Source: Escherichia coli (GTDB taxonomy: Bacteria > Pseudomonadota > Gammaproteobacteria > Enterobacterales > Enterobacteriaceae). From it: a stretch of DNA of 64,000 nucleotides. The notes under the pieces are model-generated. The model made no database searches. It worked only from the letters and a program-made list of their open reading frames with translations, and was not told the DNA's origin. Shown one piece after another: positions 44,307-62,623 of the stretch. A program made the position numbers and the translations under genes. The stretch is taken from assembly GCF_003991155.1 (NCBI RefSeq), contig NZ_CP031293.1, one strand, 5' to 3'. Within the stretch, counting starts at the first letter, position 1, and every line of letters starts with the position of its first letter.

Positions 44307-45170
44307 ATGGATATAACTTGTTTAGAATGTGGCAATGTTCTTGACGACCCAACTGTAGCTTGCGATAAATGCGGTGCCACGCCTCATGTTGTAGTGCTGG
44401 GCAAACAATCGTACTTTCCTATTGGTGCTGTAACAGCAAATCTTGAAAAAAATGATTCAAGAGCATTTGATTATCGATTAGGTGAAGTTTGGGATCTAAA
44501 AAATGAAGTCACATCTGAATTCATAACCAGAATTGAGAAAAAATTTAGCCGAAAAAACAAATTTCATAACTTCCTAGACTCAGATCACAACCCTTCATCC
44601 ATTCCTACGATCCTAAAAAAATACATTAATAAGAATAATGAATTCATTGATTTATCTAGAGCTATAATAGAGAAGCTTAAACATAATGCTAATAACGAAT
44701 CGAGAGTTGCCCAACTTCAGGGGGGGAGCGTTGTTTTCATCCACTATAAGTCTACCGAACCAGAGGATTTGGGGAAACTTCTAATCGTAATGGTTGATAA
44801 ACAAAGCGCCTATGACTTTGATTCGGATAAGTTGACCCCAACAAGATTAAATCCAATTAATACCGATGCCTTACGGCAGGCTGCGATGTTCGATTTAACT
44901 TTATTCGAAGCCAGTTATCCAGAAAACAAGGGTGACTCATATGTACATTTCTTGCAAGGTAAATCTAAAAGCGATTTTTTCAAAGACTCATTAGGTTGCC
45001 GACATGATTCGGACAATAAAAGAAGCATTCAGCAATTATTCAGTGCTATAGATATTTTTGCTAGTAAAAACTCACTCGGTCGTGTACTGCGTGATACTAT
45101 TGACAATGAAGTTAAATCCTTACTGGAAAAAAATCAAAAGATAAACACGGAAATAAGTCCGTTAAGATAG
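44307..45170 (+). CDS. Zn-ribbon + NdpA/YejK-like nucleoid-associated-protein-family protein, truncated by frameshift at an A7 tract
   Basis: 287-aa ORF; N-terminal CLECGN-x10-CDKCG; FSRKNKFHNF, GGSVVFIHYK and YVHFLQGKSKSDFFKDSLG align by eye to YejK; AT-rich. Confidence 0.7.
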   Translation: MDITCLECGNVLDDPTVACDKCGATPHVVVLGKQSYFPIGAVTANLEKNDSRAFDYRLGEVWDLKNEVTSEFITRIEKKFSRKNKFHNFLDSDHNPSSIPTILKKYINKNNEFIDLSRAIIEKLKHNANNESRVAQLQGGSVVFIHYKSTEPEDLGKLLIVMVDKQSAYDFDSDKLTPTRLNPINTDALRQAAMFDLTLFEASYPENKGDSYVHFLQGKSKSDFFKDSLGCRHDSDNKRSIQQLFSAIDIFASKNSLGRVLRDTIDNEVKSLLEKNQKINTEISPLR

Positions 45171-45481
45171 AGGATATTTCAAAAATAATTGACTCATGCC
45201 TGACTGATTCACACAAATGTAAGGGAACGTTTGTCGATTTTGTTAATCTTAATGGTTTCCAGATTGACCCTCAATTTGAACCAACTCCTAAAGCAGCTGA
45301 AAGCGCGCTTACAATTGAAGTGGCAGATAACGACAATAATTTTAAGTTGAAAATAATGCGTGGAGCTATTGGAGACGAAAAGTCAAATAAGCCTGTAATT
45401 CTCACTGACAACAAATGCGAAATTGTGATAAAATTGAGTCAGGCAAATTATGATGAACTCAAAAGATATAGAGACAGCTAA
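45116..45481 (+). other. Open -1 frame continuing the upstream gene (YejK-like C-terminal region)
   Basis: Frame open from 45116 to TAA at 45479-45481, 2 nt before the next ATG; needs a -1 shift at AAAAAAA 45127-45133. Confidence 0.55.
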
Positions 45482-45483
45482 TA

Positions 45484-46698
45484 ATGACAATTGCTGATGA
45501 CTTATCAAGATTAGCGCAGATTATTAACGGAGCCTCAAGCAGAGTTGAGGGCTACTACACTGTCATAAGTCTTGAAGAAAGCATTGTTATTGTAAATAGT
45601 TCTGAAATAATTAGACTGTTACAATCTATAGGTTATAAAAAGGCAACAACCTGCATCGAAAATAATGAAATTTGGCTAGATCGCCAAGCTTCATCTTGGG
45701 ATGATGCTATAATTTATGAGAATGTTGAGTCTTTTTGGTCTAGAGTAAACACCCAAAACGCTCTTCCGAAAAATTATATCATCGGAACGCCGTTAATACT
45801 CCCTACTTCTAAGAATGAAAGCATCGAAAAAATCCATATTTTCTTTATGTGGAAAGATATCCTTTCATTAATTGCTGATCATCATAACAGTGACTGCTCT
45901 GTCTTATTTTTCACCAATGAAGACAAAAGTTATACAGTCGAACTCACGCATTTTTTACAATATAGCGAGATTAATCGCTTATCGAACTCGTCTCTTAAAT
46001 ATGAAATTATAAAGGAGCTTCTCGACACAATAAAAATCAATGATTTACACAAAAGCGAGCGCAAGCTCGTTATACGCTCAGCCATAAACGAAGTATTTAA
46101 AGCAAATGGTACGTTCAATTTCTTTGACTTGCTTAACTCTACTGAACTCGTCAGGAAAAAATATGATGAACTATATGAGATTTACACAAAGAGGTTTTCT
46201 GTAAATAAAATTCTTAACGAACTCGATGAGAAAAATCTTGAGTTCACGAGTAAAATTAACGAATTCATATCATCTAATCAGACAAAAGCATTGACTATTC
46301 CCGGTGCATTAATAGCAGCTGGTGGCTTAGTGAAGGCTAATGAAACAACCGAAGCAATATTGATTATCGCAGGACTTTGGATGATAAAAAAAGTCAATTA
46401 CATTTCTATTGAGATATTCAATGAAACATTCGACAACTTACGTTCTCGAGTGGAGTCCGCTTTCGATAAGTATTTAAAGTTTGAAGAAAATAAAGAAATC
46501 AAAGATAATGCAGATAGTATTAAGAGTAGCATTACAGGTTTGATTGATAAAGCTAAAAAAAGGATGAGAACTGTTAAATATCTCGCATCAGCCATGTTTT
46601 ATGGAGGCCTTATTTACGTTGGATATAAACAGTTCCCAGTCTTTTTTGAAAAATCGGCAGTAAATCTATTTTATTTTTTATGCCATACTATAAGCTAA
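45484..46698 (+). CDS. Hypothetical membrane-anchored protein, two C-terminal TM segments
   Basis: 404-aa AT-rich ORF; hydrophobic LTIPGALIAAGGLV...ILIIAGLWMI and YLASAMFYGGLIYVGY; no Walker or nuclease motifs seen. Confidence 0.7.
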   Translation: MTIADDLSRLAQIINGASSRVEGYYTVISLEESIVIVNSSEIIRLLQSIGYKKATTCIENNEIWLDRQASSWDDAIIYENVESFWSRVNTQNALPKNYIIGTPLILPTSKNESIEKIHIFFMWKDILSLIADHHNSDCSVLFFTNEDKSYTVELTHFLQYSEINRLSNSSLKYEIIKELLDTIKINDLHKSERKLVIRSAINEVFKANGTFNFFDLLNSTELVRKKYDELYEIYTKRFSVNKILNELDEKNLEFTSKINEFISSNQTKALTIPGALIAAGGLVKANETTEAILIIAGLWMIKKVNYISIEIFNETFDNLRSRVESAFDKYLKFEENKEIKDNADSIKSSITGLIDKAKKRMRTVKYLASAMFYGGLIYVGYKQFPVFFEKSAVNLFYFLCHTIS

Positions 46699-47034: not shown

Positions 47035-47255
47035 CAACTTTCTCCACAAAATCAGGCCAGAACGCCAATTACAAGCAAAAATCAACAAAACAGTATTAGT
47101 TGATTGTTATCTCTGACTTCATACTCCTGCTCCTGTCAGGGTTTTGGCGTAATTCTTCAGTATTCGGTAATCGGTCAAAACAGAACCGGGGAAACGATAT
47201 AAGCGCAGACGCCCCCAGCGGTGGCGAAGAAATTCTGCCATATTAAACTCAAACA

Positions 47256-47618
47256 TCATTCATTCCCCATTTCGGTGATGGTCAGTTCCAGCCTCCCACC
47301 TTTGGTAACAGGCATCTTCACAACGCGGTAATCAACGACCTGAGCATCATCCAGCCAGAAACCTGCTTTAGTGAGTGCGTCAAAAGCGGCTTTTTGCAGA
47401 TTATCCAGGTCACGGCGACGGCGATCCGGCATGTGGCACTCAATGCGGATTTTCACAGGCATAGCTAGGCCGATATCCAGCATTGCGTTTTTAATGATTC
47501 GGGCGACGTTATCGCGGTATGCCTGCCCCTCTGCGCTGACGTGCGTGCGCCCGCGATTATGGCGGTAATAGCGATTATTGCTCGGAGGCCAGGGTAATGT
47601 GATACTGTAGGTATTCAC
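47256..47618 (-). CDS. rusA: RusA Holliday-junction resolvase
   Basis: 120-aa [34 protein letters not shown]... Confidence 0.9.
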
Positions 47619-47905
47619 GCCTTAATAACCCCCTCTTTCAGCCAGATAACCTGTGTTCTCGCCATACCTTCCAGCGCGCATTCTTTTGCATATGCAGCAT
47701 CGACAAAATGTGTGCGGCGGTCGATTTCGTCGTGGCAGGCAGAACATGCAATGGTGGCAATCAGGTCTGGCGGTTTGATACCGGTACCGCACAATCCAGC
47801 CAGCCGGATATGTGCCAGTACAGACGTTTCAGAATTGCCATTACATACGCCAGGGATTCTTACCTGGCATTCCCGACCACGCGCTGCTTTTCTCAAATCA
47901 GCCAT
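47615..47905 (-). CDS. ybcO: YbcO-like protein (DUF1364, putative nuclease)
   Basis: Start [35 protein letters not shown]... Confidence 0.8.
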
Positions 47906-48068
47906 GATTCCTCCTTGCTGCCAGTCGCAACCATTTTTTATCAACCAGGCTAGCGGTATATCCGAGCAGTGTTGGTATTTCGGATGGCTTCGGCTCAGGC
48001 TTACGCTTACGACGATTTGATACTCTGTAGATGTGTCCGTTCATGACACGAATAAGCGGTGTAGCCAT
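47898..48068 (-). CDS. ninE: NinE family protein
   Basis: Reverse-strand translation [31 protein letters not shown]... (56 aa); start overlaps ybcN stop. Confidence 0.6.
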   Translation of the reverse strand: MATPLIRVMNGHIYRVSNRRKRKPEPKPSEIPTLLGYTASLVDKKWLRLAARRNHG

Positions 48069-48523
48069 TACGCCTCCTGCTTGTCACGGAGCAGCTGGAA
48101 CTCGCAGCTCTGCGGAATAGTCAGGTGGCAGCCAATATTCACCGCCCAGGCTTCAACCTTACACAGGAAGACATACATCTCTCCGGTATCAAGATCGGAG
48201 GTATGGCGTAACGACTGGATAGTGGTGATATCACCGGTTACGACATCAACCAGGTCTTTGGTTTCATAACCGAGATATGTGTGTTTGAGAGCATCTTTTA
48301 CCCAAGCTGGAGTGGCGAACGTTTTACCCCTGTTGATGAGGTATTCACTGATTTCGCTGTACCACATGTGGCTGAGTGCATTCTGGGAAAGACTGCGTTT
48401 CTCACGCCACGGTTTAAGCACCATGCGAAAGCATTTGCCCTCCTCCAGATAAGGCTGGATCTGCCGACCGATAGCGGTGAAGTTACCGCGATGTAATTTG
48501 ATGCCATCTTGTGGGAGATTCAC
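48068..48523 (-). CDS. ybcN: YbcN-like nin-region protein (DUF1367)
   Basis: 151-aa [37 protein letters not shown]... Confidence 0.8.
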
Positions 48524-48719
48524 GCTTCACCTCCGCAGAGGTCAAACGCTGGATGCAAAAAATCGCAGGTGCATCTCTGCATCTGTGAAGGGAGAAGAGA
48601 GTTTGGATTGTATGTGCGCATAAACGTCCCCGTTTAGCGCAGAAGTCACCGGAGTTGTTCAGGCTCCGATGACATGATTATGGCAAAATGATTATGTAAA
48701 ATCAAAAGCCAAAAAACAA

Positions 48720-50282: not shown

Positions 50283-51809
50283 TCAAAAATAAACCTCACC
50301 ATCAACCATATATTTGAGAGTACTTATCGCCTGCTGGGCGGATATTGTTTTCATTAAAGGATAGTGTTTAAAAACAATGCCATTCATAAAATAGATATCA
50401 CAGGTTTTATTATCTGTATTGATTATGATTTTTTCGAATGTTTTATAGGCAAGTGTACGACATAGCTCTCGCCCATTTTTACTGGTTAAGTCAATAGCAT
50501 GAAAATCACCAAGTGAGCTCACCGCTTTACTCTTCAAAGTTTTTAATGATACAGAAGCCCTTCGTAATTCCTTATCTAATACTCTGATTTTTTCTGCTAT
50601 AGCGGTAACTTCAGGCGCAACAGATAATGCAGCAATTAAATTATTAATTTTCATCTGGAGCTCAATAATTTTCAACTCTAAAGTTTCATTAGCATCTTTC
50701 TTGTTTTCAACTGGTTGGATTTTACTACAATTAAAAAGCAACTCATTAATGATATTATAATCAACCAAATCTCTCTTTATTGATGGCCTGTCACATCGAT
50801 GCAGTCTTCTCATCGGACAAACATAATAGCCATGCAAACTTCCAGATACCGCATGAACAATCATGGTATTACCACAAGCCTCGCACTTCATAACTGTTCG
50901 AAGTAGATTTATCAACATAGGATTTTTGCTACTATTGCTAATACCAAAAGGTGCCAACCGAATTTCCTGCACAGCGTAAAACAAATCATCTGATATGACT
51001 CTGGGATAATAGCCAGCGATTTCACTTATTCCTTTACCTCTTGCACGATATGAAGGTACGCATATACCTATCAGAGCTTTATTCGCTAATAATTTTTCAA
51101 TTACAGAAGGTCCCCATGCACTTTCTTTTCCTGAGAAATTCTTTACAGCATGATCATTTAAATACTTGGCTATTGCATTCAATGAGCGCCTTTCCATCCT
51201 GAGTTTAAAAATTAGCTCAATAGTTTTCACCCTGTCGGGGTCTGGAACAAAAGCCGTTCTTTTGTCATCTAAGGAGAGCCATCTCGGACAAGACGCCGTC
51301 ATAATCGTGCCTGACTCCAGTGCATCCTGCCGTTTTTTCTTCCATGATAATTTAACCCGACTTGACTTTATCTCGCTTTCTTCATTTGCCCTTTGTGCTA
51401 TAAGTATGGCTTTTATTAATGAATATGGATCATTCAAAGAGTCAATATTATAGACTGTATTATCGCAAAGAGTTATAACATCAATACCGTGATTCAAAAT
51501 CAATTTCAGACGCTCAATCGCTTCACCGACTTTTTCTCTTGAAAGTCTGTCCAGACTTTCAACTAACAATGTAGTTCCTGGCAATATATAACCATGCTCT
51601 ATAGCATCTAAAAATTCCGAAAAAGCTCCTGATTGTGCATGCTTTCCTTTGAATGCACTTAATCCTAAATCTTCATATGTTATGGTATCAAGATAATAAT
51701 CACTATTTACCTTTAACCATTCAGCAATAAGTCTTCTCTGTCGGTTTAATGAGTCGCCAGACATCTGACCTGGTGATGAAAATCGCATATATGCTATGGC
51801 TTTTTTCAT
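50283..51809 (-). CDS. ybcK: Large serine recombinase (YbcK-like)
   Basis: 508-aa AT-rich ORF MKKAIAYMRFSSPGQ... with resolvase catalytic domain, recombinase domain and Cys-rich zinc ribbon. Confidence 0.8.
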   Translation of the reverse strand: MKKAIAYMRFSSPGQMSGDSLNRQRRLIAEWLKVNSDYYLDTITYEDLGLSAFKGKHAQSGAFSEFLDAIEHGYILPGTTLLVESLDRLSREKVGEAIERLKLILNHGIDVITLCDNTVYNIDSLNDPYSLIKAILIAQRANEESEIKSSRVKLSWKKKRQDALESGTIMTASCPRWLSLDDKRTAFVPDPDRVKTIELIFKLRMERRSLNAIAKYLNDHAVKNFSGKESAWGPSVIEKLLANKALIGICVPSYRARGKGISEIAGYYPRVISDDLFYAVQEIRLAPFGISNSSKNPMLINLLRTVMKCEACGNTMIVHAVSGSLHGYYVCPMRRLHRCDRPSIKRDLVDYNIINELLFNCSKIQPVENKKDANETLELKIIELQMKINNLIAALSVAPEVTAIAEKIRVLDKELRRASVSLKTLKSKAVSSLGDFHAIDLTSKNGRELCRTLAYKTFEKIIINTDNKTCDIYFMNGIVFKHYPLMKTISAQQAISTLKYMVDGEVYF

Positions 51810-52065
51810 GGTGACACCTGCTAACGTATGCTTTTATAAACCTTAGTGGTGAGATATAATTTTTGTTTAATTTTTATTTAAAAAGACAATTAAGGTCACA
51901 TTATCTTGAATATACAACAATAATCGTATTGCAATTTTCTTACGCCATAATCTTGAAAGCACAAAAGAATACATAAAAAAATAAAGACATTAACAAAAAG
52001 CATAAAACGAGGCTCATATAAATATAAGAGCCTCCATATTTTAGTCGTTTAGAAACAAATTATTT

Positions 52066-52398
52066 TTAATGTGGTGTGCTTCGTGACAATAAATTAATAA
52101 CCAACACACCGGCACAAATCAACATCATGCCTATAATGGCTGGCAGGTCCAGCCGTTGGCCGAAAAATCCCCATGACAGTAAGCTAATCAGGACAATACC
52201 GACTCCTGACCAGATAGCATAAGCAATCCCTGTAGGAATATAAGCCAGCGTCTGAGCTAATAACCAGAATGATGCACAATAACAAATAATTGTACCAACA
52301 GATGGCCATAACCGTGTAAAACCTTCTGAAAACTTCATTAAGGTTGTACCAATGACCTCTGCAAGTATTGCACCACCAAGATAAATATAAGGGTTCAT
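52066..52398 (-). CDS. emrE: EmrE small multidrug resistance transporter
   Basis: Start MNPYIYLGGAILAEVIGTTLMKFSEGF...; four TM helices. Confidence 0.9.
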   Translation of the reverse strand: MNPYIYLGGAILAEVIGTTLMKFSEGFTRLWPSVGTIICYCASFWLLAQTLAYIPTGIAYAIWSGVGIVLISLLSWGFFGQRLDLPAIIGMMLICAGVLVINLLSRSTPH

Positions 52399-52465
52399 AG
52401 CATATTCTTTCCTGTTCAAACTGGAGAGAATTGTACTACAGTTTGAAATCAACTCACCTGTTTCA

Positions 52466-52768
52466 TCATTGTGTACCCATTGATGTTCTTTTATATACCC
52501 TCAATAAGCGTTTCATCGCGGCACTCTGGCGACACTCCTTAAAAATCAGATTCGTGCTCACCTTTCCTTCCCGTTCTTCTCTGGTAGCGAACCGGTAATA
52601 CACCGTTCGCCAGACCTTACCATCAACGACCAGGATTCCTGCCCGCGCCATTTTAGCCGCAGCCTGATTTATGCTGGTTACGGTTGCGCCTGTTACCGCG
52701 GCAACGTCCTGTGCACAGAAGCTCTTATGCGTCCCCAGGTAATGAATAATTGCCTCTTTGCCCGTCAT
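52466..52768 (-). CDS. ren: Ren protein
   Basis: 100-aa ORF MTGKEAIIHYLGTHKSFCAQDVAAVTGATVTSINQAAAKMARAG... Confidence 0.85.
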   Translation of the reverse strand: MTGKEAIIHYLGTHKSFCAQDVAAVTGATVTSINQAAAKMARAGILVVDGKVWRTVYYRFATREEREGKVSTNLIFKECRQSAAMKRLLRVYKRTSMGTQ

Positions 52769-53466
52769 ACACTTGCTCCTTTCAGTCCGAACTTAGCTTT
52801 AATTTCTGCGATCTTCGCCAGAGCCTGTGCACGATTTAGAGGTCTACCGCCCATAACAGGAAGTTGTTTTACTGGTTCAGGGATCGCCTCACCACGGTTA
52901 ATTCGCGCGGTCATACAAGTCAGTTCATCGGCAGCCTTGCGCCGTAATTCCGTATCAGTAAGCGCATTGGCCCGCATATTCTGGTACAGGCTAGTAACCA
53001 GCCAGTAGTGCGCGTTTGATTTCCACGGATAAGACTCTGCATCCGGATACAGGCCACGCTTCCGGCAATACTCGTAAACCATATCAACCAGCTCGCTGGC
53101 GTTTGGCAGTCCGGCAATAACGGATACTTCTTCACGGCACCATGCAACAAACTGCCCGGGTGATGGCAGGAATGGTCGATTCTGCCGACGGGCTACGCGC
53201 ATTCCTGCGTTAACCTGTTCCATTGTGGTGATCCCGTTTTCCCGGAAAGCCAGAACCCACTGGCGGCGGATTTCGTTCAGTTCGTTCTGGTCCCGGTTAG
53301 CCAGGCTCGCCGGGAAAGTTGCCAGTAACTGGCTGAACACACCATTGATGATCTGCGCTACCTGCTGTACCTGAGGCTTTTCGTCGTACTGTTCCGGCAT
53401 GTTGTTGGCGATCCGACGCATCTGCTCACGGTCAAAGTTAATCATCTGTGCGGCGATGTTTTTCAT
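52765..53466 (-). CDS. P: Replication protein P (helicase loader), lambda type
   Basis: 233-aa ORF MKNIAAQMINFDREQMRRIANNMPEQYDEKPQ... Confidence 0.9.
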   Translation of the reverse strand: MKNIAAQMINFDREQMRRIANNMPEQYDEKPQVQQVAQIINGVFSQLLATFPASLANRDQNELNEIRRQWVLAFRENGITTMEQVNAGMRVARRQNRPFLPSPGQFVAWCREEVSVIAGLPNASELVDMVYEYCRKRGLYPDAESYPWKSNAHYWLVTSLYQNMRANALTDTELRRKAADELTCMTARINRGEAIPEPVKQLPVMGGRPLNRAQALAKIAEIKAKFGLKGASV

Positions 53467-54392
53467 AAATCCACCCCGTAAATCCAGTCTGTGTTTGTCA
53501 GGTCGAGTTTTGGTTTGCTAGCTGTCACGCCTGCCTGTTGCTTGTTACGGTTGATTTCGAGTTGGGTCCACTTGTCGCGGAGTTTGGCCGGACTTAGCAC
53601 GTTACCGGACCAGAAGTTGTCCTGGCATGCCCAGCGGAACAGCACGCACATGTCGCGGTGGTTACGTCCGTCACGTTCACGCATCAGGCGGATATCGTTA
53701 GCCCACCCTGCAAAATTCGGTTTTCTGGCTGATGGCGCGATGGTCTTCACCATGTCAAACATCCACTCTGCGGCGGTCAGGTCTTCTGCTGTCCCCCACC
53801 TGCTGCCGCTCTGAATTGCAGCATCTGGTTTCTCCACAGGAAGGTCGTTTTCTGGCTGGTCAGAGGATTCGCCAGAATTCTCGGACGAAAAAGGTTTTAT
53901 ATTGTCTTTTGTTAGTTTGTCTTTTGTGTTTACCTGATTCGGGTAAACGTCTTTACCTGATTTGGGTAAACTTTTTTTACCTGATTCAGGTAAATTTACC
54001 TCTTTCAGGTAAACTTTATTTTTCTTACCTGATTCGGGTAATGTTGACCATTCACTGACCACATTATTAATGCCGATATTCCGCCCGCTCTGAATAAAAA
54101 TCCCACGCTTTACCAGAACACTTTTTGCAGCAGAACACTTGTGCGGCAATATCCCGGTTAACTCGGAAAGTTGCTCGTTGCTCACCCAATCCATTTTTTT
54201 ATTAAAGCCATATGTTTTGCGCATGACAGCCAGGAAGACCAGAAGCTGGTGCTGTGTTAATCCGGCCAGCATCACAGCTTCCAGCAACTCATTTGCAATG
54301 CGCGTATAACCATCATCGAGATCTGCCACGCGCCGCTCCTTTTGTGCCGCATCCGGCACTGGAAAATTGAATATCTCAGCAGTGTTTGCCAT
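53463..54392 (-). CDS. O: Replication initiator O-like, non-lambda specificity
   Basis: Start MANTAEIFNFPVPDAAQKERRVADLDDGY...; iteron array inside gene; C-terminus lambda-O-like. Confidence 0.8.
   Translation of the reverse strand: MANTAEIFNFPVPDAAQKERRVADLDDGYTRIANELLEAVMLAGLTQHQLLVFLAVMRKTYGFNKKMDWVSNEQLSELTGILPHKCSAAKSVLVKRGIFIQSGRNIGINNVVSEWSTLPESGKKNKVYLKEVNLPESGKKSLPKSGKDVYPNQVNTKDKLTKDNIKPFSSENSGESSDQPENDLPVEKPDAAIQSGSRWGTAEDLTAAEWMFDMVKTIAPSARKPNFAGWANDIRLMRERDGRNHRDMCVLFRWACQDNFWSGNVLSPAKLRDKWTQLEINRNKQQAGVTASKPKLDLTNTDWIYGVDL
53929..54044. repeat. Replication origin iterons inside O
   Basis: Four to five ~20-bp repeats TTACCTGATTCGGGTAAAC (variants TTTGGG, TCAGG) at roughly 24-bp spacing. 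Confidence 0.75.
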
Positions 54393-54478
54393 AATTCCTC
54401 CCGCAATGAGTGTGTTACGATTTGCACCTGAAAGTCGGTTCTGTTCCAGCAGACCGGCTTTCGCCATTTCTGAACCTG

Positions 54479-55018
54479 TCATATTGCCCCCAGCATGGTG
54501 GTGACCATCGCCATCAGTGGACCAGCCAGATCTGGGTCCACACGAAACATCGACACAATACCTTCACTAATTTCCTTCAGTTTCTGGTGGCGTGGTGCGT
54601 TGAGAATGACAGCCTGTTTTGCCTCACTGAGTTCCTTTTCCATTTCAGCCAACCTAGCCATAAAGCTATCCTGCTCAACCAGGTAACCGCGATATTCCAG
54701 CGGTAGTACCGCCAGAATTGCCGGGGTCAGTTCACGCACGTTATTTCGGTATTTTTCAGAATCGAATTTGTTATCGAGGAAGCGGAACAGCTTCTGGCGT
54801 GCACGGCTGACATCATCAGGGAAATCGATGGTGCCGCCGCCCAGCTCCCGATACTCATTCACAATGAGTGCGGCAACAACATCCTGATTATCTGCAGCCG
54901 ACCAGGCGCGAACGGCATCACGGATTTTTTCGTGGCCTGGCGCCTGTTTTGTTTGAGAACGATTTATCACCGCAGTCGGGGTAAATCCGCTAGTCTGTTG
55001 GTATGTAATTGGTTGCAT
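54479..55018 (-). CDS. YdaT-like protein in the cII position
   Basis: 179-aa ORF; EYRELGGGTIDFP and LTPAILAVLPLEYRGYL resemble Rac YdaT. Confidence 0.55.
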   Translation of the reverse strand: MQPITYQQTSGFTPTAVINRSQTKQAPGHEKIRDAVRAWSAADNQDVVAALIVNEYRELGGGTIDFPDDVSRARQKLFRFLDNKFDSEKYRNNVRELTPAILAVLPLEYRGYLVEQDSFMARLAEMEKELSEAKQAVILNAPRHQKLKEISEGIVSMFRVDPDLAGPLMAMVTTMLGAI

Positions 55019-55099: not shown

Positions 55100-55330
55100 T
55101 TAAGCTGCGTTCTTTTCGGTGTGTGGAAACAACTTCGGAAGATCCGGGCGAATCTGGTATGCCTTCACAACTCCACCAGTAGCCGTAACAATGCTGCCGA
55201 CATGTTCAGGGGATACCTTTGCTTTGTTGTGAAGCCACTTATAGACGGCCTGCTGTGAAACTTCGCAGGCATCGCCCAGTTTCTTTTGTGAACCAACTAT
55301 ATTGATCGCTGTTTTGATTGCTGGGTTCAT
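55100..55330 (-). CDS. Cro-like HTH regulator (YdaS family)
   Basis: 76-aa ORF MNPAIKTAINIVGSQKKLGDACEVSQQAVYKWLHNK...; divergent from the repressor. Confidence 0.7.
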   Translation of the reverse strand: MNPAIKTAINIVGSQKKLGDACEVSQQAVYKWLHNKAKVSPEHVGSIVTATGGVVKAYQIRPDLPKLFPHTEKNAA

Positions 55331-55434
55331 AACAACCTCCGTGGTTAATCTGAACCAAGATTAAAACTATGGTTGTTTTTAGTCAACAACCATTTTCGTT
55401 TGATGGAATAAAACCTTGGTTGTACATTTGGTCT
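55331..55434. promoter_or_regulatory. OR-like operator/promoter region between cro and cI
   Basis: Inverted repeats TTAATCTGAACCAAGATTAA (55345-55364) and ATGGTTGTT-N7-AACAACCAT (55369-55393). Confidence 0.6.
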
Positions 55435-56124
55435 ATGAAAACAACACTCTCAGAAAGACTTAAAGAAGCCAGATCAGCGCGAGGCCTTACACAAAAGGCA
55501 CTTGGGGATTTGGTTGGGGTTAGCCAGGCTGCTATTCAGAAAATCGAAACAGGGAAAGCTAACCAAACAACTAAAATCGTGGAGATCGCGAACGCTTTGG
55601 GTGTGCGCGCAGAATGGTTATCTTCTGGCATTGGAAATATGTCAGACAGTACAGTGCAACCAATACAATCAACTCTCAGCCATTCCAAATACTTCAAGAT
55701 TGACGTTCTTGATATAGAAGTCAGTGCTGGGCCGGGAGTCATCAACCGTGAGTTTGTAGAAGTTCTACGCTCGGTTGAGTACTCGTTTGACGATGCTCGT
55801 CACATGTTCGATGGTAGGAAAGCGGAAAATATCCGCATCATTAACGTGCGTGGTGACAGCATGTCAGGAACGATCGAACCAGGTGATCTGCTGTTCGTTG
55901 ATATCACTGTTAAATCTTTCGACGGTGATGGTATCTATGCGTTTCTGTACGACGACACAGCCCATGTAAAGCGCCTGCAAATGATGAAGGATAAGCTGCT
56001 GGTCATCTCTGATAACAAAAGCTACTCACCGTGGGACCCGATCGAGAAAGACGAGATGAACCGGGTGTTCATCTTCGGTAAGGTTATTGGGAGCATGCCG
56101 CAGACGTACAGGAAACACGGATAA
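55435..56124 (+). CDS. cI: CI-like repressor with S24 LexA-type autopeptidase domain
   Basis: Start MKTTLSERLKEARSARGLTQKALGDLVGVSQAAIQKIE (HTH); C-terminal GDSM and KRL catalytic motifs. Confidence 0.85.
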   Translation: MKTTLSERLKEARSARGLTQKALGDLVGVSQAAIQKIETGKANQTTKIVEIANALGVRAEWLSSGIGNMSDSTVQPIQSTLSHSKYFKIDVLDIEVSAGPGVINREFVEVLRSVEYSFDDARHMFDGRKAENIRIINVRGDSMSGTIEPGDLLFVDITVKSFDGDGIYAFLYDDTAHVKRLQMMKDKLLVISDNKSYSPWDPIEKDEMNRVFIFGKVIGSMPQTYRKHG

Positions 56125-61169: not shown

Positions 61170-61512
61170 GGCCTGTCAGTTTCTTAAGATATCCAGACCA
61201 ACCGCCACCAACTGGATACGAACAGGCCGCCTACAGGCAACACGTAAAGATCCAACCAAGCCAAAATCTCCTTACCTCACAACACGGCAAGCCTGCATTG
61301 CGGCGCTTCAGTCTCCGCTGCATACTGTCCAGGTGAGCGCGGGTGATGGCATAACAGAGGAAAGAAAATGTCACTCTTCCGCAGAAATGAAATATGGTAT
61401 GCCTCGTATTCGCTCCCGGGCGGGAAACGAATTAAGGAATCTCTTGGCACAAAGGACAAGCGGCAAGCTCAGGAGTTGCACGACAAGCGAAAAGCAGAAC
61501 TCTGGCGAGTAG
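61141..61512 (+). CDS. xis: Excisionase / AlpA-like HTH protein
   Basis: [31 protein letters not shown]... immediately upstream of and overlapping int; exact 3' extent uncertain. Confidence 0.5.
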
Positions 61513-62531
61513 AAAAGCTAGGGGATTTACCTGATGTCACTTTTGAAGAGGCCTGCCTAAGATGGCTTGAGGAAAAAGCTGATAAAAAATCTCTCGATTC
61601 AGATAAAAGCCGGATTGAGTTCTGGCTTGAACATTTTGAGGGTATAAGGCTTAAAGATATCTCGGAGGCAAAGATTTACTCTGCTGTAAGCAGAATGCAT
61701 AACAGAAAGACGAAAGAAATATGGAAACAGAAAGTTCAGGCCGCCATCAGGAAAGGTAAAGAACTGCCTGTTTATGAACCAAAGCCAGTATCAACTCAGA
61801 CAAAGGCAAAGCATCTTGCCATGATAAAGGCCATTCTCCGTGCTGCAGAACGCGACTGGAAGTGGCTGGAAAAAGCGCCTGTCATCAAGATACCAGCGGT
61901 CAGAAACAAGCGAGTCAGATGGCTGGAAAAGGAGGAAGCAAAACGCCTTATTGATGAGTGCCCCGAACCACTGAAATCTGTCGTCAAGTTTGCGCTGGCA
62001 ACTGGTCTGAGAAAGTCGAACATCATAAATCTGGAATGGCAACAAATCGACATGCAGCGACGAGTTGCCTGGGTGAATCCAGAAGAGAGCAAATCAAACC
62101 GCGCCATTGGTGTGGCGCTGAACGATACCGCCTGTAAAGTGTTGCGTGATCAAATAGGCAAGCATCGCAAATGGGTGTTTGTACATACCAAGGCGGCTAA
62201 GCGAGCAGATGGAACATCAACGCCTGCGGTCAGGAAGATGCGCATCGACAGCAAGACATCATGGCTATCAGCTTGTCGTCGTGCAGGAATTGAAGATTTC
62301 CGTTTCCATGACCTCAGACACACCTGGGCAAGCTGGCTGATTCAGTCAGGCGTCCCATTATCAGTGCTTCAGGAAATGGGCGGATGGGAGTCCATAGAAA
62401 TGGTTCGTAGGTATGCTCACCTTGCGCCTAATCATTTGACAGAGCATGCGAGGAAAATAGACGACATTTTTGGTGATAATGTCCCAAATATGTCCCACTC
62501 TGGAATTATGGAGGATATAAAGAAGGCGTAA
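61368..62531 (+). CDS. intD: Tyrosine integrase (DLP12 IntD-like, argU-specific)
   Basis: 387-aa [36 protein letters not shown]...; C-terminal [10 protein letters not shown]...RYAH catalytic motifs; next to tRNA-Arg. Confidence 0.9.
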
Positions 62532-62546
62532 CTGATTGAATTGTAA

Positions 62547-62623
62547 TGGCGCGCCCTGCAGGATTCGAACCTGCGGCCCACGACTTAGAAGGTCGTTGCT
62601 CTATCCAACTGAGCTAAGGGCGC
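62547..62623 (-). tRNA. argU: tRNA-Arg (anticodon UCU), attL site
   Basis: Reverse complement GCGCCCTTAGCTCAGTTGGATAGAGCAACGACCTTCTAAGTCGTGGGCCGCAGGTTCGAATCCTGCAGGGCGCGCCA; 3' 45 nt duplicated at 13823. Confidence 0.9.

Follow-up and report, generated by a model that had tools for sequence, protein, structure and literature searches.

The closest described systems to the locus reported here are the replication origins of lambda and related phages. In the literature on these systems, O is described as binding the iterons as a dimer via its N-terminus and binding P via its C-terminus (Tsurimoto & Matsubara 1981; Furth & Yates 1978; Wickner & Zahn 1986; PMC6022878, PMC8022706), and lambda-82 and lambda-phi80 hybrids that combine a non-lambda O N-terminus with the lambda C-terminus and lambda P appear there as classical (Furth & Yates 1978, in PMC6022878). 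The lambda iterons ITN1-4 occupy codons 117-145 of O, and the arrays of P22, phi80, mEpX1, HK97-like phages and Gifsy-1 are found at the same place in O. Six iterons are present in the Stx phages 933W and P27, with the extra copies lying promoter-proximal, beyond the core four, and O lengthened accordingly; these extra proximal iterons are weakly bound, yet required (PMC7466680).

Here, we analyzed a 64,000-nucleotide stretch of Escherichia coli DNA (the window), whose matches are E. coli chromosomes that carry a prophage next to tRNA-Arg/intD, and propose that an iteron array within its O gene is very probably the replication origin of a lambdoid prophage at this (DLP12) site, organized like the lambda ori and recognized by a different initiator allele, with a mechanism argued from homology. 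Within the lambda O/iteron family this origin is ordinary and very widespread, though it has an iteron sequence of its own.

A repeat search of the window confirmed five iterons at 53929-54042 within O, which is encoded on the minus strand. The initial annotation had placed repeats in O at 53929-54044, which was accurate; its count of four to five resolves to five, whereas the spacing of ~24 bp that it gave is actually 19-29 bp. On the plus strand the copies start at 53929, 53952, 53976, 53995, and 54024, with 19-nt cores TTTACCTGATTCGGGTAAA, TTTACCTGATTTGGGTAAA, TTTACCTGATTCAGGTAAA, TTTACCTCTTTCAGGTAAA, and CTTACCTGATTCGGGTAAT, giving start-to-start distances of 23, 24, 19, and 29 bp (29, 19, 24, and 23 bp in O-sense order). 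The plus-strand consensus is TTTACCTGATTCGGGTAAA and the O-sense consensus is TTTACCCGAATCAGGTAAA, i.e., TTTACC-CGAATCA-GGTAAA, so that half-sites TTACC and GGTAA flank a 7-bp centre, and every copy is an imperfect palindrome with 14-18 of its 19 positions self-complementary. With up to 3 mismatches allowed, the consensus matched 7 times in the 64-kb window (both strands counted), always within the array, compared to 0.03 matches expected from shuffled sequence and 0 of 100 shuffles reaching 7; at up to 4 mismatches, no further site was found in the window beyond the array. The array covers O codons 117-155, directly after the Phage_rep_O domain (aa 21-115) and between the two O domains, in agreement with a lambda-type origin, which has four or more imperfect palindromes of 17-19 bp spaced about two helical turns apart.

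Read in O-sense from the promoter-proximal side, and all on the minus strand, the array begins with iteron 1 (54024-54042, ATTACCCGAATCAGGTAAG), which encodes TLPESGK, followed by iteron 2 (53995-54013, TTTACCTGAAAGAGGTAAA), whose centre (GAAAGAG) diverges and whose reading frame differs, giving VYLKEVN. Iteron 3 (53976-53994, TTTACCTGAATCAGGTAAA) is self-complementary at 18 of 19 positions and is followed by iteron 4 (53952-53970, TTTACCCAAATCAGGTAAA) and by iteron 5 (53929-53947, TTTACCCGAATCAGGTAAA), which is read as VYPNQVN in the same frame as iteron 2 and abuts an AT-rich tract. Because iterons 1, 3, and 4 translate as (T/N/S)LP(E/K)SGK and iterons 2 and 5 are read in a different frame, the repetition is at the level of DNA and not of peptide. 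Iteron 2 aligns with lambda ITN1, and iterons 2-5 are spaced at 19, 24, and 23 bp compared to 20, 24, and 23 bp in both lambda and P22; since iterons 2-5 align on lambda ITN1-4, iteron 1, which has no counterpart among the four lambda iterons (alignment A1), is an extra promoter-proximal copy. The Stx phages resemble this arrangement in their extra proximal copies, though theirs are iterons of the lambda sequence type and the window array has one extra copy of a different sequence. Given the weak binding of the extra proximal copies in Stx phages (PMC7466680), the five iterons here may not all be used equally.

To place this array among known origin types, the dominant repeat was extracted identically from each O gene. 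Lambda and 21 share the iteron ATCCCTCAAAACGAGGGAT in 4 copies, as does 434 according to the annotation of its record; phi80 and mEp237 have TTCCCGAAAACGGGAA (4 copies), P22 has TTTACC-RAATC-GGTAAA (4 copies), mEpX1 has TGTCTCGAAGTTAGAGACA (4 copies), the HK97-like mEp213 has TTAGCCAAGTCAGCTAA (4 copies), SEN34 has TTAGCGGAAGTTGCTAA and mEp043 GTGTCACCAAAACGGTGAC (at least 2 copies each), and Gifsy-1 has ATCCCCGAAAACGGGGAT (7 copies), next to the 5 copies of TTTACC-CGAATCA-GGTAAA in this window. With so many iteron types in the comparison, the type found here is one entry in a long, regular series. The initial annotation had described iterons in the O linker that are positioned like those of the lambda ori but differ in sequence, which this comparison bore out, and alignment with the lambda, 21, phi80, and Rac origins, as it had suggested, found all four to differ from the array.

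The likeness to lambda (with which phages 21 and 434 are grouped) is extensive and includes an array at the same O codons, an AT-rich tract with ACAAAAGACA, the TTCGTC...CTCTGA segment beside it, iterons 2-5 spaced like ITN1-4, an O C-terminus and P that are ~98% and 96% identical, respectively, and a pO/oop-like antisense promoter. In contrast, the lambda iteron is ATCCCTCAAAACGAGGGAT rather than TTTACCCGAATCAGGTAAA, is present in four rather than five copies, and is paired with an N-terminal domain that is 50% identical to the one here. With iterons unrelated in sequence and this degree of N-terminal identity, assignment to the lambda specificity type (lambda, 21, 434) was rejected, as was a separate phage 21 type, given that phage 21 has lambda iterons. 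The phi80 gene 15 type was rejected on its iteron, TTCCCGAAAACGGGAA, and an N-terminus 40% identical, and the Rac replicon (ydaU/ydaV, oriJ) on the lack of significant similarity between O and YdaU (DUF1376; E 0.91); no iteron pattern was found in ydaU-ydaV of Rac.

Gene O (53463-54392, minus strand) encodes 309 aa from an ATG at 54392, with a GGGAGGA Shine-Dalgarno sequence 5 nt upstream. This ATG aligns with the start of lambda O and with the starts of all relatives (MANTAE...), and judging from these sequences it is probably the true start. Many annotations, including RefSeq and phage 4C10, begin O at an in-frame ATG at 54482 that overlaps the upstream stop codon, yielding a protein of 339 aa whose 30-codon extension (54392 vs 54482) overlaps an oop-like region. 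This antisense element (54367-54470, plus strand) consists of a promoter-like site, TTGAAT-17-CATAAT with an upstream TG (54367-54395, plus strand), that aligns with lambda pO, followed by a hairpin at ~54431-54463 with a short T-run, antisense to the junction between a YdaT-like gene and O. Rfam matched only the flanking tRNA and no family for an oop-like RNA.

The O protein carries the Pfam domain Phage_rep_O (PF04492; aa 21-115 of the 309-aa form, E 1.2e-34) and matches phrog_277, "replication initiation O-like" (E 6e-164). Its predicted origin-binding domain, a winged helix-turn-helix of non-lambda type according to Pfam and a structure model, spans 54045-54392 (minus strand), and its N-terminal ~116 residues are 50% identical to lambda O, 58% to P22 gp18, and 40% to phi80, followed by a linker that cannot be aligned with lambda O. 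In the AlphaFold model, residues 1-116 have a mean pLDDT of 80, exceeding 90 across most of residues 40-110, and form a helix-turn-helix (helices 72-79 and 83-95) followed by a beta hairpin. The best matches of this model in a fold search of solved structures were CRP/MarR-type winged helices, with weak, generic scores that speak to fold class and not to function, and a sequence search of solved structures returned no relative of O. Across phages, the start of the predicted recognition helix co-varies with the iteron half-site, with PHKCS (this type) and PTKCS (P22) accompanying TTACC, HTHC and HTHV (SEN34, mEp213) accompanying TTAGC, and KRCN (lambda) accompanying TCCCTC; from this we infer that determinants of specificity may lie at the start of this helix. 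The C-terminal, P-interacting part of O (53463-53889, minus strand) is of lambda type, with DNA 88-98% identical to lambda and a protein ~98% identical to lambda O by BLASTP, with few differences from about residue 170 to the end. The start of gene P (52765-53466, minus strand) overlaps the O stop, and P, a lambda-type helicase loader, is 96% identical to lambda P (Pfam Phage_lambda_P, E 4e-61; phrog_109), so that the C-terminal domain of O is coupled to a downstream helicase-loader gene as in a lambda-type origin. The pairing of a non-lambda O N-terminal half with a lambda-type P noted in the initial annotation therefore holds, at 50% and 96% identity, respectively, and the O C-terminus (~98%) is lambda-type as well.

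Directly promoter-distal to the last iteron lies a 39-bp AT-rich tract (53890-53928, minus strand) of 25.6% GC, compared to 50% for the window, with two TGTCTTTTG motifs (ACAAAAGACA in O-sense), which is presumably the unwinding region. The elements ACACAAAAGACA...ACAAAAGA beside the last iteron are kept in lambda, P22, and all relatives of this type that were examined, and only loosely in phi80. To the right of the tract, the segment TTCGTCCGAGAATTCTGGCGAATCCTCTGA (53860-53889, minus strand) is the first stretch of the lambda-type module, common to lambda, 4C10, and phi80 and absent in relatives with other C-termini (alignment A1). A sliding profile of the O-P DNA against lambda gave 38-68% identity over O-sense nt 1-480; from nt 481 onward, and through the whole of P, identity was 88-98%, a single 60-nt stretch at 78% excepted. 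The profile was reversed against an E. coli O of 284 aa, Klebsiella phage GZ7, and a Salmonella O of 294 aa (72-93% to nt 480, then unrelated). The switch to lambda-like DNA is sharp, taking place over ~15 bp in the distal AT-rich tract at roughly 53890-53905 (alignment A1). The module exchange that had been suggested from the sequence is thereby supported by the DNA identity profile, with an exchanged unit consisting of the O N-terminal domain, the iterons, and most of the AT-rich tract. By this sequence comparison, that unit appears to be one exchangeable module and the O C-terminus with P a second, which were apparently joined by an old recombination within the AT-rich tract or at the conserved segment adjoining it; the resulting combination looks like a standard and highly successful lambdoid replicon, neither a recent nor an unusual hybrid.

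In other replicons this N-terminus and iteron module has a different partner, namely a loader of DnaC/IstB type in Klebsiella phage GZ7 and beside the E. coli 284-aa O, and a different P-family protein beside the Salmonella 294-aa O. These three share with the window an N-terminal domain 84-90% identical, TTACC-N7-GGTAA iterons in 4-6 copies, and the same AT-rich tract, but past that tract their O C-terminus and loader are unrelated to those of lambda. In these relatives the N-terminal coding DNA is 73-85% identical and the iteron stretch 75-93%; the iteron stretch is the more identical of the two in one case, the E. coli 284-aa O (88-93%), and in no other. Within this N-terminal type (relatives of 278-308 aa), TTACC-N7-GGTAA iterons with LPESGKK units vary from 4 to at least 6 copies, which suggests that iterons are frequently gained and lost via slippage or unequal exchange.

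Fifteen deposited phage genomes carry the full O gene at 97-99% identity, among them Lambda_4C10, 4A7, 1W, 3W, Perceval, Turner, IdasGreatGrand, and several PhiR phages, and a further 148 phage records match only its lambda-type C-terminal half. Near-identical O/ori/P regions occur in genomes deposited as phages, several of which list laboratory propagation hosts, and the iterons of phage 4C10 are identical to those in the window. Of 5426 complete E. coli genomes, 2296 (~40%) contain the segment comprising the O N-terminus and iterons across 80% or more of its length, and the equivalent lambda segment is rarer, in 1324 of the 5426. More than 400 contigs encode exactly this O protein, whose cluster at 90% identity has 7825 members. 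A protein database search and cluster look-up returned only generic names ("replication protein") and no phage 82 label; at the matching E. coli prophage, RefSeq labels O "replication protein" and P "replication protein P" with no origin annotated, and the iterons are unmarked both in the phage 4C10 record and in the RefSeq E. coli record examined. With 15 phage genomes, 2296 E. coli genomes, a cluster of this size, and a relative in P22, the claim in the initial annotation of a new origin specificity and a useful orthogonal replicon candidate was overstated.

The origin is embedded in a mosaic prophage whose other modules were also compared. In the immunity region, a YdaS-family protein takes the cro position and a YdaT-family protein (phrog "CII-like activator") the cII position (54479-55018 and 55100-55330, minus strand), with a divergent S24/LexA-like repressor opposite them (55369-56124, plus strand); Rac-type families are limited to these cro- and cII-position genes, and the prophage in this way combines a Rac-like regulatory set with lambda-like replication genes. 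Ren is separated from the nin genes by an emrE-like SMR transporter and a 508-aa serine recombinase similar to ybcK (50283-52452, minus strand), a cargo shared with phage 4C10 and with DLP12 of K-12. Over the nin region (orf33, ybcN/orf151, ninE, ybcO, rusA, ylcG; 47129-48600, minus strand), identity to the phage 82 record X92588 is 96%, a similarity that ends at Q, where the prophage encodes a 136-aa Phage_antitermQ protein in place of the 230-aa Q82. The interval from Q to the lysis cassette holds two cargo genes on the opposite strand (44307-46698, plus strand): one encodes a 287-aa protein of the NA37 (YejK-like nucleoid-associated) family that appears truncated compared to a 391-aa gene in strain MRY15-117, and the other a 404-aa protein with no Pfam or PADLOC match; PADLOC found nothing in these neighbouring cargo genes. 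A 387-aa tyrosine integrase sits directly beside a tRNA gene (62550-62623), and in the matching RefSeq genome the integrase is intD and the tRNA is tRNA-Arg, followed by fimZ, so that the prophage has one of its ends at 61368-62623, in the DLP12/argU attachment site. Overall, this prophage, which still has O and P, appears to be related to the DLP12 remnant but of full length.

Of the alternatives to our interpretation, the one that survives best bears on novelty and not on mechanism, and holds that the array is the classical phage 82 origin type and thus an already well-known ori, a view for which we find the case evenly balanced. The nin region of the prophage from ybcN/orf151 through rusA to orf45 matches the phage 82 record X92588 at 96% identity, and phages that share this O/ori also share an X92588-like nin region. 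The phage 82 ori is described as carrying five repeats with lambda-like sequence to their right; it was reportedly sequenced in 1979, by Moore and coworkers and by Grosschedl and Hobom, and is said to have been used in lambda-82 hybrid genetics. The title of Furth & Yates 1978 (in PMC6022878) attests to hybrids of lambda and 82 whose crossovers lie within O, and the 82 O C-terminus would therefore be compatible with lambda P, in the same architecture as seen here, where a type-specific N-terminus and ori are joined to a lambda-compatible C-terminus and P. On the other hand, lambdoid genomes are mosaic, and the Q gene here already differs from Q82. Among the phage records searched, which also lack a 1979-era phi80 ori entry, no phage 82 ori or O matched, an absence that carries no weight either way, and literature searches for this ori yielded only mentions in reference lists.

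It is unlikely, by comparison, that the array is a mere sequence variant of the P22 gene 18 origin whose functional specificity it would share. P22 has the closest classical iteron, sharing the outer half-sites TTTACC/GGTAAA, the spacing pattern, and the AT-rich motif, and its gp18 N-terminal domain is the most similar among the classical phages (58% identical overall, 65% locally), with a similar start to the predicted recognition helix (PHKCSAAK here vs PTKCSTAK). However, P22 has four iterons of 17 bp with a 5-nt centre compared to five of 19 bp with a 7-nt centre, and gp18 has a different C-terminus and partners with a DnaB-type helicase (gp12) and not with P. The wider centre is seen in every copy here, which on sequence grounds would set the array apart from the P22 type, and in all relatives examined. 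Relative to P22 it represents a symmetric 1+1 bp expansion between identical half-sites, accompanied by changes in the winged-helix domain, with ~40% of the N-terminal residues different. To a winged-helix protein that binds as a dimer, half-sites 2 bp further apart would present both a changed distance and a changed rotational setting.

Somewhat less probable still is that the origin is a dead remnant in a prophage as defective as DLP12 in K-12. The prophage does occupy the DLP12 site, carries the DLP12-like emrE and ybcK cargo, and has one moron gene (the NA37-family protein) that appears truncated relative to another strain, but O and P are intact open reading frames, the exact O protein recurs on the >400 contigs noted above, the iterons match those of phage 4C10 in full, and integrase, recombination, immunity, nin, and lysis genes as well as long open reading frames of structural size all fall within the window. 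Finally, we can practically dismiss the idea that the repeats are only an LPESGKK peptide linker produced by slippage with no function in DNA: the array does encode a low-complexity linker rich in Lys, Ser, Gly, and Pro, and relatives of 284, 294, 300, and 308 aa vary in carrying 3-5 LPESGKK units, but a change of reading frame makes two of the five copies encode unrelated peptides, all copies are palindromic, and position, spacing, and the flanking AT-rich motif match those of experimentally defined origins.

Returning to a lambda-type origin served by a different O allele, we propose a mechanism by homology with lambda. Dimers of the winged-helix N-terminal domain of O would bind the five palindromic iterons (half-sites TTACC/GGTAA, 7-bp centre), and the resulting nucleoprotein complex would destabilize the adjoining tract of 26% GC. 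The lambda-type C-terminal domain of O would then recruit the lambda-type P carrying host DnaB, which host chaperones would release, while transcription from the cro-side early promoter would run through the origin. Given that P and the chain of host factors are those of lambda, any orthogonality would be limited to origin recognition.

Searches of the literature with the iteron strings in both orientations returned no paper, and the searchable literature yielded no experiments on binding to, or replication from, iterons of this type. We suggest, tentatively and with somewhat less than even confidence, that TTACC-N7-GGTAA is the commonest lambdoid origin in E. coli, that it may lack prior experimental characterization, and that it may be functionally orthogonal to the origins of both lambda and P22. 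If so, P22 and this type would form a natural pair in which to study how a dimeric initiator is re-tuned to the spacing of its half-sites, and the array would provide a ready-made plasmid origin that depends on lambda P and is unrecognized by lambda O. For engineering, it could provide a second replicon similar to lambda-dv with separate origin recognition, sharing with lambda its dependence on P, DnaB, and chaperones.

The importance of these findings is modest, and they leave current understanding of lambdoid replication unchallenged. For annotation, they indicate that O is often called 30 codons too long. For the biology of lambdoid phages, they provide a clean natural example of initiators built from two modules, in which the recognition half travels with the iterons and the loader-recruiting half travels with P, and they reveal a "non-lambda" origin type that is more frequent in E. 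coli genomes than that of lambda itself.
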